NCBI GenBank assembly: GCA_018304615.1
Contig: JAGVVV010000003.1
Coordinates: 1-61,470 of the forward strand
Length of the DNA stretch: 61,470 nt
Reading direction: 5' to 3'
Origin: Candidatus Aenigmatarchaeota archaeon
GTDB taxonomy: Archaea > Aenigmatarchaeota > Aenigmatarchaeia > CG10238-14 > SCSR01
This document shows, piece by piece, positions 3,047 through 37,452 of the stretch. The position numbers were made by a program, and so were the translations under genes. The notes under the pieces were generated by a model. The model was not told the DNA's origin. It ran no database searches and saw nothing but the letters and a program-made list of their open reading frames with translations. How positions within the stretch are numbered: position 1 is the stretch's first letter; the number at the start of each line of letters is the position of its first letter.

Positions 3047-4369
3047 TTAGAACTTGAACCCAAATTGTTTCCCCAAATTCTTCAGAGCTCCTCTTTGAAG
3101 GCCTGCTTGTCCTCCAAGCATCTTCATCATTTTCTTCATCTTCTCATACTGATCTAACAGTTCCCTGACTTCTGACTCAGGTCTTCCACTTCCTTTTGCA
3201 ATCCTCTTTATCCTGCTTGCATTGACTATTCCTGGATTCTCTTTCTCAGATTTTGTCATTGATTGCAATATATGTTTGAAGCGTTTCATCTTCTCTTCCT
3301 GCTTTTCCATCATGGCTTCTGGCATAGCAGCTCCGAGACCAGGGACCATTTTTGCTATTTGCCCCAAAGGACCCATCTTCTGCATGGCCTCAATTTGGTC
3401 ATAAAAATCTTGCAAGTTGAATCTGCCTTCGACTATTTTTTCCACAGATTCTTTCTTGATGTCAACTTCCTTCGCCTTCTCTAGAAGAGTTTCCAAATCT
3501 CCCAATCCGAGAAGTCTAGAAACGAATCTCTTCGGATCATATGATTCCAAATCATCAATCTTCTCACCCACTCCGATGAATTTTACTTTCGCTCCTGTTA
3601 CCGACGCGGCGGCCAATGCCCCACCTGCTTTCGCAGTCCCATCCATCTTAGATATAACCACCCCTGTCACTCCAGCAAGCTTGTGGAATTCTTCTGCCTG
3701 GACTTTCGCAACTTTACCCAAATCAGCAGGAATAACCAACAAAACTTCGTCAGGTTTTATTATTTCTGTAAGTTTCTTCAATTCCTCAGCAAGTTCCTTG
3801 TCCAGCGCGTTCCTGCCTGCAGTGTCGAAAATTACAGTATCATATTTCTCGAATTTCTTCATGCCTTCTGCCGCAGCTTCATATGGATTCTTGTTGGAAT
3901 TGATATGTACAGGAACCCCAATCTGTTTCCCCAACTGTTCTAACTGTTGTGGTGCGGCTGGCCTATGATAATCCAATGCTACAAGCGCGGGCTTCAATCC
4001 CTGTTTCATCAATGATTTCGATAATTTTCCTATCGTGGTGGTTTTTCCAGAACCGAAAAGTCCGACAAACATGATTCTTTTCTTTCCCATCAATGGAGCT
4101 GGATTTTCTCCAAGAAGCTTTACTAATTCTTCATAAATTGTCTTCAAAACATGCTCCCTCAAAGTCAATCCAGCAGGAGTCTTTTCTTCAAGAGTCTTCC
4201 TTCTTACATTGCTCACTAGTTCATCTGCAAGTTTGATGTCTACGTCTGATTGAAGAAGAAGTATCTTCAAGTCGTTCAAGATTTCTTCTACTAATTTCTT
4301 GTCTACTGATGTTCCTGTAGTCAGCTTCCTTATTAAACCGCTTAATCCTTTGCCTAGGCTATCAAACAT
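3047..4369 (-). CDS. srp54: signal recognition particle protein SRP54
   Basis: GLFGSGKTTT, DTAGR, SKMDGTAKAGG GTPase motifs and Met-rich M domain (NASRIKRIAKGSG). Confidence 0.97.
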   Translation of the reverse strand: MFDSLGKGLSGLIRKLTTGTSVDKKLVEEILNDLKILLLQSDVDIKLADELVSNVRRKTLEEKTPAGLTLREHVLKTIYEELVKLLGENPAPLMGKKRIMFVGLFGSGKTTTIGKLSKSLMKQGLKPALVALDYHRPAAPQQLEQLGKQIGVPVHINSNKNPYEAAAEGMKKFEKYDTVIFDTAGRNALDKELAEELKKLTEIIKPDEVLLVIPADLGKVAKVQAEEFHKLAGVTGVVISKMDGTAKAGGALAAASVTGAKVKFIGVGEKIDDLESYDPKRFVSRLLGLGDLETLLEKAKEVDIKKESVEKIVEGRFNLQDFYDQIEAMQKMGPLGQIAKMVPGLGAAMPEAMMEKQEEKMKRFKHILQSMTKSEKENPGIVNASRIKRIAKGSGRPESEVRELLDQYEKMKKMMKMLGGQAGLQRGALKNLGKQFGFKF

Positions 4370-28500: not shown

Positions 28501-28586
28501 GGGCTCATAGTCTAGTGGTAGGACGTGGCGCTTTCAAATACGGCGCATACAACGCCAGAACAGGAGTTCGATTCTCCTTGAGCCCA
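28501..28586 (+). tRNA. tRNA-Val(UAC) with a 15-nt intron at position 34/35 (28534-28548)
   Basis: Acceptor GGGCTCA/TGAGCCC, discriminator A, T-loop TTCGATT; BHB with central helix GCGC 28528-31/28543-46 and bulges TTT and ATA; spliced loop CT-TAC-AA. Confidence 0.88.
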
Positions 28587-33643: not shown

Positions 33644-34747
33644 TCACAAAAGACTTCCGTCGTCTCCAACTATCAAATCAACAGGTCTGCCTGTAACTGT
33701 GAAATTTTTTAACCAGCCAGTTGCAAAATCTTCAATATTTTTAGGAACTCCGTCTTCCATATGAATTCTCACAATTTTGTATCCAGTCGGAATGTTTCTG
33801 TTCCATGAACCGTGGAAAGCTACAAACAGATTTCCCTGATATTCTTCCGGAAAATTGTTCCCATTATAGAAAGTCAAACCTAAGGGTGCAGAATGTGCCT
33901 GCATCTCAAAAACTGGAGGTTCTGTATCTTCACATGGATTTCTAATGTAAACATTCTTGTCAAAATCTGTATCATGAATTCTATTTCCATAACAAACTGG
34001 CCAGCCGTAGTTCTTTCCTTCTCTTATTATGTTGATTTCTTCTGGCGGAACATCCTCTCCTATCATGTCTCTTCCATTATCAGTAGCCCACAACTTCCCA
34101 TCGTAGAAAATCATTCCCACAGAATTCCTCAAACCTTTTGCGATCACTAGACAAGTTTTGTTTTCAATACTGCATGCAGAAATTGCAGCCCTTCTTTCGT
34201 CTTCCTCGTAACAGACATTGCAGCTTGACCCTATACTCAAATAAAGAGTATCATTGCTAATTCTAATCGTTCTGGTAATATGACCTCCAGAAGGTAGGTT
34301 GTCAAAAAGAACTTCCAAAGTATTCTTATCAGCCTTCAATCCTTCAAGTTTGAATCTCGAAATCCTGTTTTCTTCTGCAACATAAAACCAACCATCAGAA
34401 AAAACTATTCCATGTGGATTCCTCAATCCTTCAATCACCGTTACTGCTCCATCTGCTTTACCGTTCCCATCTTTGTCTGGAAGAGCCACTACTTTCCCTT
34501 GTCGCATCAGCGAAGTAAACAAAACACCATCTTTTATTTCCAGAAATCTCGGCCCGTCATTCGGTCCTGGATACGAAGCAGGGCTTGCTGATAATCCTTC
34601 GGCAAAAACTTCAATCTTGAATCCAGGTGGGACTTTTATCTCACTTGCATTTTGTTCCACTCTTGGTCTTATTCCTAATTGGAAATATCCAAAAACAAAA
34701 ACCGCCAAAATAATTAGAAGGAAAATAATAATCCTTAATTTCTTCAT
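33644..34747 (-). CDS. PQQ-dependent sugar/sorbosone dehydrogenase family, apparently C-terminally truncated
   Basis: GGHITR, SIGSSCN, GLRNSVG, NYGWP, AHSAPLGL, AFHGSWNR, GRPVD; stops at DGSLL. Confidence 0.85.
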   Translation of the reverse strand: MKKLRIIIFLLIILAVFVFGYFQLGIRPRVEQNASEIKVPPGFKIEVFAEGLSASPASYPGPNDGPRFLEIKDGVLFTSLMRQGKVVALPDKDGNGKADGAVTVIEGLRNPHGIVFSDGWFYVAEENRISRFKLEGLKADKNTLEVLFDNLPSGGHITRTIRISNDTLYLSIGSSCNVCYEEDERRAAISACSIENKTCLVIAKGLRNSVGMIFYDGKLWATDNGRDMIGEDVPPEEINIIREGKNYGWPVCYGNRIHDTDFDKNVYIRNPCEDTEPPVFEMQAHSAPLGLTFYNGNNFPEEYQGNLFVAFHGSWNRNIPTGYKIVRIHMEDGVPKNIEDFATGWLKNFTVTGRPVDLIVGDDGSLL

Positions 34748-36360
34748 ACATACTCTTCCAATATCTGTATGACTTCACTTTTTCCTCTGTCAATTATGTA
34801 CGGTCCGAGCCTCGGCCCTCTCTCAGAATTTAATAGAATCTTGTATATGTTCTTGAAAAACTCAATCGGCTTCACTCCATGCCTCTTAGCTATTTCAAAA
34901 ATTTCTTTTTGCAGCTTCTCTCCGTCTTTTTCCTTTTTTATCAACTCAATTAAATCAGAAATCCCAGCTTTGATGTCTCTGGACAATTCTATTCTCACAG
35001 TTTCTTTCTGCCCATATTTCTGATACCAGATCTTCGCGTATTCTAATCTTTCTTTAATTCCTTTCTCATCTTTGGCTTTATGCCCGAACTCTTTCAGCTT
35101 GTTCATTGCAAATTTCAGCTGATTTTTTTCCGGAAGTATTTTCACAATCTCGACAAAGACTGAAAATGGAGCTGTGTGTTCAAACTTCTTTGGAATCGGT
35201 TTTATCTGAAGCATCGTGAAAAGTCTCTTGAAATTAATTTCGTCTCTTTCATTCGGAGCTTTCTTCAACCCGTAATAAATCTCTGCGAGCTTGTCATACT
35301 CGTCATTCATCGATGGAATGTCAGCCCATCTGAAATTCCTCTCCCTCATAGGATCTTTTAAAAATAGCAATCTGAGTAATTCAGCAGTTGCAACCTTCAG
35401 CCATTCGCGAGGATAGACTATATTTCCAAGAGAAGCAGACATCTTCTTCCCATCTATAACCAAATGCTCGTAAAAAATAGGGATTGAAGACGGGAAATTC
35501 AAAATCTTTTCCATAATTTCAGTTGCGACCCAAAAAGCCGAACCGGGAACTATATATTCTTTTCCGAACCCTTCAGCCCTAACTTTCCAGTGTACGTGCT
35601 GAGCTGCCAACTCGCTTCTGTAAAGTAATTTTCCATTTCCTTTAGATGGATCATCCACCCCTTGATATTTACAGCCAACTGCAGTTTGGGTTTTGAACGA
35701 ATAGTCTTTGCAAATGTAATGTACTTTCCCTTTTTCAACTTTAGTTACCCGAGTGGTGATTATCTTTCCACAGTTTTTGCAAATTGGCTGCCAGGGACTC
35801 CAATCTTTAGGCAAAGGATCCTCCTTCGGCCTGTGGCTGTTCAATATCTGAACAACCTTTTCGTAATCATTCAAAATAATTTTTATTTCTTTCTTGAAAG
35901 TTCCCTTGAGATACTCTTCTCTCATCGAATAAACTTTCATCTTACTTTGAATGAATTGGTTTACAACTTCCAGATACAATAATCTGTGATGCTCTTCGTA
36001 TGACTTGTGGCAACCATCAGAATCAGGAATCTCAGTGACAGGCACGCCAATGTATTGTTTGTAATTTTCCGGAACGCCTTTTGGAATTTTTCTCAACGGA
36101 TCAACATTATCTGCAGACCAAATGAAATCCGATTTGAATCCTAAATCAGTCAATGACCTGTGAACAGTTTCCACTCTTATCGTATCGCTTAATCTTCCTA
36201 TGTGGAGAACTCCAGAGATTGAGGCAGCAGACTTTACTACAAACCTCTTGAATTTCGGAACTGATTTATCCAAATATCTGAATTTTTTCATCTCAACGAT
36301 TTCTTTTGCTATTTTGTCAGTCCAAAACTCGTACTTGTTTTTCATATTCTCTAATTTCAT
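34744..36360 (-). CDS. lysK: class I lysyl-tRNA synthetase
   Basis: SGVLHIGRL (HIGH), KMSASLGN (KMSKS), RGPRLGPYI; start may be 36345. Confidence 0.95.
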   Translation of the reverse strand: MKLENMKNKYEFWTDKIAKEIVEMKKFRYLDKSVPKFKRFVVKSAASISGVLHIGRLSDTIRVETVHRSLTDLGFKSDFIWSADNVDPLRKIPKGVPENYKQYIGVPVTEIPDSDGCHKSYEEHHRLLYLEVVNQFIQSKMKVYSMREEYLKGTFKKEIKIILNDYEKVVQILNSHRPKEDPLPKDWSPWQPICKNCGKIITTRVTKVEKGKVHYICKDYSFKTQTAVGCKYQGVDDPSKGNGKLLYRSELAAQHVHWKVRAEGFGKEYIVPGSAFWVATEIMEKILNFPSSIPIFYEHLVIDGKKMSASLGNIVYPREWLKVATAELLRLLFLKDPMRERNFRWADIPSMNDEYDKLAEIYYGLKKAPNERDEINFKRLFTMLQIKPIPKKFEHTAPFSVFVEIVKILPEKNQLKFAMNKLKEFGHKAKDEKGIKERLEYAKIWYQKYGQKETVRIELSRDIKAGISDLIELIKKEKDGEKLQKEIFEIAKRHGVKPIEFFKNIYKILLNSERGPRLGPYIIDRGKSEVIQILEEYV

Positions 36361-36375
36361 TTCATCACATTTAAT

Positions 36376-36486
36376 TGGGCCGGGAGGGATTCGAACCCTC
36401 GACCTGCCGATTTCCTAGCCTCGACATATAAGTCGGCTGCATATCAACACTTGGTAGTGTTTCTAACCAGGCTAAGCTACCGGCCC
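36376..36486 (-). tRNA. tRNA-Ile(UAU) with two introns: 23/24 (21 nt, 36441-36461) and 37/38 (15 nt, 36412-36426)
   Basis: GGGCCGG/CCGGCCC acceptor, GCCGA/TCGGC anticodon stem, loop CT-TAT-A|A; both introns form bulge-helix-bulge motifs. Confidence 0.9.
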
Positions 36487-36543: not shown

Positions 36544-37452
36544 ATGTTTAATAAATCTCTTTTGGTGAATAAGCTAGTTAATTCTTTGCTTTCAAAACAA
36601 TTTCAAGTTTTACTAAGCCAGGGGTCTTTCGACATAGCAGCTAAGAGAGAGAATCTCATGCTCGTGAAATCGGCACTGAATGTCGACAGTGTGAATGAAG
36701 GGCAGATGAAAAGCCTGAAATCCATTTCATTTTTCCTTTCTGCCTATCCCCTGATAGTTTCTGTGAAGAACAACAGGGAATTTCTGAACGATCAGATGGT
36801 CTATTCAAGATTCGACCTCCCTGTGATTACACCAACTCTTTTTGAGAATTTCTTAGATGAGGAAAAAATCCCTGTGGTTGATTCTTCGAGAGGGAGACAC
36901 ACGATAAAAATCGACACTACTTCTCTAAGAAAGAAAAGAGAAGATCTGGGTTTCAGTTTGAGGCAATTGTCATCCTTGGTTGGTATTTCCAAGAAGGCCC
37001 TCTATGAAATCGAAAAGAACAGAGTGAATCCAACAGAAGATACAGTCAGCAAACTTGAAACGACATTGAAGATCGAGCTGAGAAATAATTTCAAGCTGAA
37101 TAAAACTTCAGAACCTGTTTACTTGAAACCAAAGAACGAGTTCCAAAACGAAGTTTCGAACGAATTCAAGAGAATCGGGATTGATAATTCTCCAGTTTAT
37201 TCCTCACCATTTGAAATAATTGGTAAAAGTAATTTCTCGTTGATAACTCATCTATCAAAAACTGAAACAAGAATGGAGAAAGATGCAAGTGTAGTTAAAC
37301 AGTTGTCGAATGTATTCTCCAGCAAGGCTGTTCTAGTACTCAAGAAATCCAAAGAAGAAAATGTAGAGGGCGTTCCGATAATTCTTGAAAAAGAACTTTC
37401 TGAACTAGAATCTTCTAAAGATCTCAACAATAGAATGAAAGAAAAACTTTAA
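36544..37452 (+). CDS. archaeal Cro/C1-type HTH transcriptional regulator (COG1395-like)
   Basis: SFDIAAKR, LRKKREDLGFSLRQLSSLVGISKKALYEIE, SSPFEII. Confidence 0.85.
   Translation: MFNKSLLVNKLVNSLLSKQFQVLLSQGSFDIAAKRENLMLVKSALNVDSVNEGQMKSLKSISFFLSAYPLIVSVKNNREFLNDQMVYSRFDLPVITPTLFENFLDEEKIPVVDSSRGRHTIKIDTTSLRKKREDLGFSLRQLSSLVGISKKALYEIEKNRVNPTEDTVSKLETTLKIELRNNFKLNKTSEPVYLKPKNEFQNEVSNEFKRIGIDNSPVYSSPFEIIGKSNFSLITHLSKTETRMEKDASVVKQLSNVFSSKAVLVLKKSKEENVEGVPIILEKELSELESSKDLNNRMKEKL

Follow-up and report, generated by a model that had tools for sequence, protein, structure and literature searches.

A tRNA-Ile(UAU) gene with introns in the D arm and anticodon loop as the probable AUA decoder of an Aenigmatarchaeota archaeon in which TiaS was not detected

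In the present work, we analysed a stretch of 61,470 nucleotides (the window) from the genome of an Aenigmatarchaeota (DPANN) archaeon (785 kb in 22 contigs, 89.5% complete) and found a locus on the minus strand, at positions 36376-36486, that is very probably (probability of about 0.9) a functional gene for the tRNA-Ile(UAU) that reads the AUA codons of this organism. The locus matched the Rfam tRNA family RF00005 over model positions 1-71 with 45.6 bits, which exceeds the gathering score of 29, and with two large insertions. ARAGORN missed the gene when it was run on the window, where it called only one other tRNA and misread that one; run on the spliced form, it returned tRNA-Ile(tat). With a dot at each splice junction, the precursor reads as DNA, 5' to 3' on the minus strand, GGGCCGG TA GCTT AGCCTGGTTA GA·AACACTACCAAGTGTTGATAT·GC A GCCGA CTTATA·TGTCGAGGCTAGGAA·, followed by A TCGGC AGGTC GAGGG TTCGAAT CCCTC CCGGCCC A, and as RNA GGGCCGG UA GCUU AGCCUGGUUA GA·AACACUACCAAGUGUUGAUAU·GC A GCCGA CUUAUA·UGUCGAGGCUAGGAA·, followed by A UCGGC AGGUC GAGGG UUCGAAU CCCUC CCGGCCC A. 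The spliced product of 75 nt has the anticodon loop CUUAUAA with the anticodon UAU, and it is identical at 66 of 75 positions (88%) to the tRNA-Ile(GAU) of the same genome (C17:31330-31404; our labels C, G and L denote contigs, genomes and loci). Because the D arms of the two tRNAs differ at one base only and the overall identity is this high, the match is beyond chance. The two tRNAs share the acceptor type, the D-arm type and the discriminator A73, which suggests that the product would be aminoacylated by isoleucyl-tRNA synthetase (IleRS), and a BLAST search of the genome with the spliced tRNA found no third Ile-like gene. An earlier note on this DNA, which had been made from the sequence alone, had described the locus as a tRNA-Ile with a UAU anticodon and two introns, and this description held. 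Genes of this kind are already known from ARMAN-2, -4 and -5, Nanoarchaeum and Korarchaeum; what is new here is the lineage, the intron in the D stem and the type of the splicing endonuclease.

The same note had supposed that the organism may have lost TiaS and had proposed searching the genome for tiaS and for tRNA-Ile2(CAU). The TiaS_FLD domain (PF08489) gave no hit at E<=1 in a six-frame search of the genome, and it was likewise found in none of 41 relatives, none of 251 genomes of the phylum and none of 301 genomes of a second DPANN phylum, which is that of a metagenome-assembled genome (MAG) labelled 'Nanoarchaeota archaeon'; the positive controls were hit each time in four of four archaeal genomes. 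The absence that had been supposed was thus found, but it is not peculiar to this organism, as TiaS was missing from all 552 genomes that were sampled in the two DPANN phyla. This scope can help with annotation and with working out at what point agmatidine decoding was lost, or whether it was never gained; our literature search found nothing specific on TiaS or agmatidine in DPANN. Only two tRNAs with a CAU anticodon were found in the genome, an initiator (C9:58829-58920) with A1 and with G29-G31:C39-C41 in its anticodon stem, and an elongator-like tRNA (C19:303-417) with an intron of approximately 40 nt. Both are needed for AUG. A scan of the genome for T arms and acceptor stems revealed three more intron-rich tRNAs (Leu, Glu and Gly) and no CAU gene, while a very noisy genome-wide regular-expression search for CAT anticodon loops with optional introns re-found just the known elongator. 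It is therefore likely that tRNA-Ile2(CAU) is absent, although a heavily interrupted, split or permuted copy is conceivable. Because TiaS was not found and tRNA-Ile2(CAU) is apparently missing, tRNA-Ile(UAU) would be the only decoder of AUA, a codon that occurs 28 times per 1000 codons (about 2.8%) and makes up 34% of the Ile codons.

The gene is conserved across the lineage. In a relative whose lysyl-tRNA synthetase (LysRS) is 55% identical (locus L003), a tRNA-Ile(UAU) with a 37/38 intron lies at positions 3872-3968, directly upstream of the class I lysyl-tRNA synthetase gene lysK, as in the window, and another 11 genomes of the order also yielded orthologues. When 12 spliced sequences were aligned, the loop CUUAUAA was invariant, 98.8% of the stem cells were paired and double (compensatory) changes occurred in 11 of the 21 pairs; none of 500 shuffles reached the observed values and the slid controls were only 26-50% paired. 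The splice choices in the relatives were guided by the window tRNA as the reference, but the stem covariation is independent of them. Our solver for the bulge-helix-bulge (BHB) motif, which demanded a strict 4/4 central helix, failed for three relatives with a 3/4 helix in their 37/38 introns (L037, L042 and L048); L042 and L048 were spliced by hand for the alignment and L037 was left out. With a strict sequence pattern, 67 of the 251 phylum genomes were found to have an orthologue. This count is a minimum, since the pattern had been fitted to the order to which the window belongs; the reversed control pattern gave no hits. The intron of the D arm also appears in other genomes and, as far as its sequence tells, is an old one. 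It is common to four genera, with the same site and related sequence in G039, G014 and G211, and its inner helices covary (ACACU/AGUGU, ACAC/GUGU, CUCU/AGAG and ACACUU/AAGUGU), as does its central helix. In one further genome, two near-identical copies of tRNA-Ile(UAU) lie close to contig ends (G026:C13:84-167 and G026:C7:79575-79658); they probably stem from a repeat at which the assembly broke.

These observations bear on the possibility that the gene arose by duplication of tRNA-Ile(GAU) and is now decaying or silent, and that AUA is read in another way, e.g., by an undetected tRNA-Ile2(CAU) together with a divergent and unrecognised enzyme. With 88% identity between the two tRNAs, a recent duplication is conceivable; moreover, the genome is incomplete and several of its tRNAs escape standard detection. 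A silent copy, however, would not be expected to be conserved across families with compensatory changes in the stems, an invariant anticodon loop and a maintained synteny. Additionally, the alternative has to accommodate the failure to find TiaS anywhere in the sampled genomes of the two phyla, a genome in which the only CAU tRNAs found are both required for initiation and elongation at AUG, and the use of AUA as a major codon. We consider this explanation improbable.

The anticodon itself depends on where the precursor is cut. An exhaustive search for BHB motifs (two 3-nt bulges, a 4-bp central helix and a cut after the second bulge nucleotide), in which ARAGORN was run on every spliced variant, returned as its best solution exactly the two introns of the earlier note, with identical helices. 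Intron 1 (precursor nt 26-46, window 36461-36441) interrupts the D arm at 23/24 and has the central helix GUUA/UGAU, the bulges GA·A and AU·G, an inner helix ACACU/AGUGU of 5 bp and an outer helix CUG/CAG of 3 bp. Intron 2 (precursor nt 61-75, window 36426-36412) has the central helix CUUA/UAGG and the bulges UA·U and AA·A, and its outer helix is the 5-bp anticodon stem. There is a precedent in the same genome for an intron that splits the anticodon: the 34/35 intron of the window tRNA at 28501-28586 turns an apparent Glu into Val(UAC). In the tRNA-Ile(UAU) precursor, the excision of 15 nt in other registers would, as read from the sequence, yield UAA, UGA or GGA. These are Leu or Ser anticodons, which need a long variable arm, and this tRNA has a variable loop of 5 nt and a body of the Ile type. 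Furthermore, only the 37/38 register combines the 4-bp central helix, the two 3-nt bulges and an intact anticodon stem, there is no CAT or GAT triplet in the region, and all 12 of the aligned orthologues give CUUAUAA in spite of their differing intron sequences and lengths. The alternative splicing to another anticodon that the earlier note had named as a possible refutation was thus not found, as no other register yields a sensible tRNA, and we regard a different register as very improbable.

The meaning of the AUA codon was examined using four window genes. The residues of the relatives that align with the ATA codons were I in 57%, V in 24%, L in 7% and M in 2% of the cases; the ATT codons had the same profile, and the ATG codons aligned with M in 48%. 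Because the ATA profile matches that of ATT and differs from that of ATG, AUA encodes Ile and not Met in this organism. The idea that AUA has been reassigned to Met, as in some mitochondria, and that the tRNA accepts Met can almost certainly be dismissed: a UAU anticodon could in principle read both AUA and AUG, but the ATA positions align with I, V and L just as those of ATT do, and the body of the tRNA is that of tRNA-Ile(GAU) and not that of the CAU tRNAs of the genome.

The splicing of this precursor would depend on the endonuclease EndA, whose gene (C10:75539-76111) encodes 190 amino acids with the N-terminal and catalytic domains (PF02778 and PF01974). Neither phmmer nor a six-frame search of the genome with PF01974 (E<=1) found a second unit or paralogue. 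Its best relative of solved structure is the alpha4 enzyme of M. jannaschii (1a79), which it matched over the full length at 3e-30, and judged from its sequence it is a single alpha-type enzyme. Compared with the M. jannaschii enzyme, it has an insertion of six residues between the catalytic Tyr and His (GVKLIRGPKSPHEH), which aligns without gaps to the alpha subunit of N. equitans (3iey_A) and with a one-residue gap to the ARMAN-2 enzyme (4fz2). Kaneta et al. (2018) described alpha4-type EndAs with a loop of the Nanoarchaeum and ARMAN-2 type in several DPANN lineages and linked this loop to the heavily disrupted tRNA genes of DPANN; going by the description in their paper, the insertion probably corresponds to the published 'L3' loop. 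The earlier note had concluded from the non-canonical introns of two tRNAs of the window that the endonuclease must have a relaxed specificity, and had proposed classifying its subunit architecture. The introns of the tRNA-Ile(UAU) gene, which form strict or near-strict BHB motifs, do not require such an enzyme; nevertheless, the one alpha-type gene, with a loop insertion that is common to Nanoarchaeum and ARMAN-2, is of the expected kind.

Several points weigh against a functional AUA-reading tRNA. The search for TiaS was based on a single domain model, PF08489. The tRNA census is incomplete, with several isoacceptors unrecovered from a genome that is itself only 89.5% complete. The inner helix of intron 2 has merely 2 bp, which is borderline for a strict hBHBh' motif, and in an unconstrained RNAfold prediction of the whole precursor, the minimum free energy fold contained neither the cloverleaf nor the BHB bulges; this fold is uninformative here, and therefore the explicit BHB geometry was used. 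A further point concerns the sole EndA of the genome. The catalytic Tyr and His (Y115 and H125 in M. jannaschii) align, but the position of the catalytic Lys (K156, 31 residues after the His) is occupied by Ala, with AHNIRA in place of AHSxRK, in contrast to all five aligned EndAs of solved structure. The same Ala was present in 117 of its 120 closest homologues. We assume from necessity that the enzyme is active: it must work because more than 25 tRNA genes of the genome need splicing. Between the catalytic Tyr and His there is a conserved insertion with Lys residues, GVKLxRGPKxxHEH, and a Lys of this inserted loop (GVKLxRGPK) may have taken over the catalytic role. How an EndA that does not have the canonical catalytic lysine splices dozens of introns is a question raised by these findings.

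With these reservations, the following pathway can be proposed for tRNA-Ile(UAU). The 111-nt precursor would arise by transcription from the minus strand, perhaps jointly with lysK, which begins 15 nt downstream, and the single EndA would recognise both BHB motifs and excise the 21-nt intron at 23/24 and the 15-nt intron at 37/38. The exons would then be ligated and CCA added, after which the 75-nt tRNA would be charged by IleRS and would read AUA through the pairing of U34 with A. We infer the transcription, the splice junctions, the charging and the avoidance of AUG by U34. An xm5U-type modification of U34 is possible considering that the genome encodes Elp3 (C15:37396-38943, 654.8 bits). 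We also considered Elp3 as a universal partner of tRNA-Ile(UAU) and rejected it: it was above the family cut-off in only nine of 21 relatives and was absent from some genomes that are at least 90% complete and have tRNA-Ile(UAU), e.g., G003. Because of this patchy distribution, Elp3 is no general answer to how U34 avoids AUG. A crude motif search for TruA, Pus7 and Pus10 recovered only Cbf5 and was uninformative about the absence of the others.

The intron in the anticodon loop is retained to a degree that distinguishes this tRNA from its sister. Retention was counted using one search frame (D-arm motif, anticodon loop and T loop) in the 251 genomes of the phylum. For tRNA-Ile(UAU), an insertion after the anticodon was present in 67 genomes and missing in one (G132:C1:37675-37730, L076), while for tRNA-Ile(GAU) nine cases had the insertion, 70 did not and four rows were undecidable. 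The raw Fisher p value of this bias is approximately 3e-30, which is inflated by shared ancestry. The result raises the question of why tRNA-Ile(UAU) hardly ever loses the intron, when most of the sister GAU genes have none. We tentatively suggest, as a rather doubtful possibility, that the intron is kept by selection and helps the tRNA to read AUA without reading AUG. The central helix of the BHB in the precursor would lock U34 and A35, and this form may be the required substrate of an anticodon modification; alternatively, the intron may keep Elp3 away from U34 until the time is right. If selection does maintain it, this intron would match, in an archaeon, the eukaryotic tRNA intron whose function is understood best. 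The case of G132, however, means that the intron is not absolutely required, and the bias may be due in part to infrequent loss of introns or to shared ancestry.

The coordinates of the features are collected in Table 1.

Table 1. Parts of the tRNA-Ile(UAU) gene and other features of the window.
Feature	Positions	Strand	Details and evidence
tRNA-Ile(UAU) gene, complete	36376..36486	-	111-nt precursor, three exons, two introns, CCA not encoded; Rfam, BHB solver and ARAGORN
Exon 1: 5' strand of the acceptor, U8 A9, 5' strand of the D stem, D loop, G22 A23	36462..36486	-	BLAST of the spliced tRNA, query 1-25 = 36486-36462
Intron 1, 21 nt	36441..36461	-	23/24, in the 3' strand of the D stem; strict hBHBh'; BHB search
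Exon 2: G24 C25 A26, 5' strand of the anticodon stem (GCCGA), C32 U33 U34 A35 U36 A37	36427..36440	-	BLAST of the spliced tRNA, query 26-39 = 36440-36427
Anticodon TAT (U34 A35 U36)	36428..36430	-	Direct reading of the sequence
Intron 2, 15 nt	36412..36426	-	Canonical position 37/38; BHB with the central helix CUUA/UAGG holding U34 and A35
Exon 3: A38, 3' strand of the anticodon stem, variable loop AGGUC, T arm, 3' strand of the acceptor, discriminator A73	36376..36411	-	BLAST of the spliced tRNA, query 39-75 = 36412-36376; junction A ambiguous
tRNA-Val(UAC)	28501..28586	+	15-nt intron at 34/35 splitting the anticodon; Rfam 58.7 bits; BHB solver Val(tac), 71 nt
Class I lysyl-tRNA synthetase (lysK)	34744..36360	-	Pfam tRNA-synt_1f, 5e-83; starts 15 nt downstream of the tRNA
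Helix-turn-helix (HTH) protein, PRK04140/COG1395 family	36544..37452	+	NCBIfam NF003162, 4e-61, full length; divergent from the tRNA

The 15 nt between the 3' end of the tRNA and the start codon of lysK (window 36361-36375, ATTAAATGTGATGAA) contain a GTGAT motif that resembles a Shine-Dalgarno sequence. The arrangement suggests that the tRNA and lysK are co-transcribed and that the processing of the tRNA creates the 5' end of the lysK mRNA. On the other side, the gene is divergent from one for a predicted PD-(D/E)XK-HTH protein, as the PRK04140/COG1395 family has been described (PMC1189080), and this head-to-head arrangement was kept in eight of the 14 loci of relatives. It was observed at L003, L057-L059, L064, L065, L068 and L069, across families of the order, and is followed by a thermosome gene. 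In P. abyssi, the accession numbers of the COG1395 and COG1571 proteins differ by four.

The other tRNA of the window is tRNA-Val(UAC) and not Glu. As standard tRNA finders miss or mis-call this tRNA and tRNA-Ile(UAU), tRNA censuses of DPANN that are based on MAGs will probably under-count the decoders. Elsewhere in the genome, there are five tRNA-Pro genes, namely two with GGG, two with UGG (one with an intron) and one with CGG (C9:29362-29436, C22:5983-6057, C9:34734-34808, C22:655-754 and C11:30350-30424); the copies with the same anticodon clearly differ in sequence, which is an unusual redundancy for a genome of 785 kb. In the genome of a relative, the locus L050 (G040:C3:4380-4640) appears, from the order of its parts, to be a circularly permuted tRNA-Ile(GAU) gene, with a 3' half (...CTGATA..ACCGGAAGGTCGAGGGTTCAAATCCCTCCCGGCCCA) that is followed by TTTTAAA and then by a 5' half (GGGCCGGTAGCTTAGCCTGGTTGGAGCGTCCG). 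The sequences that flank it on the outside, CCAACTCACC and GGTGAGTTGG, complement each other, as would be expected of a leader and a trailer that form a BHB.

The use of a UAU anticodon after the loss of an enzyme that modifies C34 has a parallel in bacteria. Bacteria without tilS, e.g., Mycoplasma mobile, have a tRNA-Ile(UAU) (PMC3575796), which compensates for the missing enzyme in a similar manner; the enzyme lost there is TilS of the lysidine route, not TiaS of the agmatidine route, and the tRNA has no introns. Among eukaryotes, the intron of yeast tRNA-Ile(UAU) pairs with the anticodon, is needed for the formation of Psi34 and Psi36 by Pus1 and blocks the Elp-dependent ncm5U34 (PMC11408192). 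The archaeal gene resembles that of yeast and other eukaryotes in its UAU anticodon, in a 37/38 intron that pairs with the anticodon and is almost always retained, and in the presence of an Elp3-type enzyme in the cell. In yeast, however, the role of the intron is known from experiments, whereas here it is suggested by the retention bias, and the crude motif search identified no enzyme of the Pus1/TruA family; moreover, archaeal splicing recognises the BHB motif and not the mature domain. In a red alga, introns likewise interrupt this isoacceptor in the D arm as well as in the anticodon loop, but that organism is a eukaryote, its gene has three introns and the pseudouridylation was studied experimentally.

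Among the archaea, a UAU decoder replaces the CAU/agmatidine route in Nanoarchaeum equitans and Candidatus Korarchaeum cryptofilum (PMC6000648). The UAU gene of Korarchaeum is most similar to the GAU gene of the same genome and, unlike the latter, has an intron (PMC6000648). Both features correspond to what we observed, and the asymmetry between the UAU and GAU genes that was reported for Korarchaeum (PMC6000648) also holds in eukaryotes. The differences are that these organisms belong to other phyla, that the Korarchaeum gene has one intron where the gene described here has two, and that here the trait is documented across the phylum. The earlier note had named Nanoarchaeum and Korarchaeum as examples of the few lineages with UAU anticodons; both stand, but the trait is less rare than was stated, as it has also been published for ARMAN-2, -4 and -5 (PMC3239211; PMC6000648). 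Fujishima et al. (2011) found that these three have tRNA-Ile(UAU) and lack both TiaS and tRNA-Ile(CAU), and that the EndA of ARMAN-2 cleaves its pre-tRNA-Ile(UAU) in vitro (PMC3239211). The likeness to the ARMAN lineages, which are also DPANN, extends to the UAU anticodon, the BHB intron at 37/38, the missing TiaS and the many tRNAs that are interrupted at non-canonical positions. In ARMAN-2 (Candidatus Micrarchaeum acidiphilum), the 37/38 intron has 25 nt and the cleavage that was demonstrated in vitro is carried out by a three-unit epsilon2 EndA (PMC3239211), whereas the gene described here has a second intron in the D stem at 23/24 and would be served by a single alpha-type EndA, known from its sequence, with Ala at the position of the catalytic Lys. 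With Aenigmatarchaeota, the list of archaeal lineages in which a UAU anticodon serves to read AUA grows by one.

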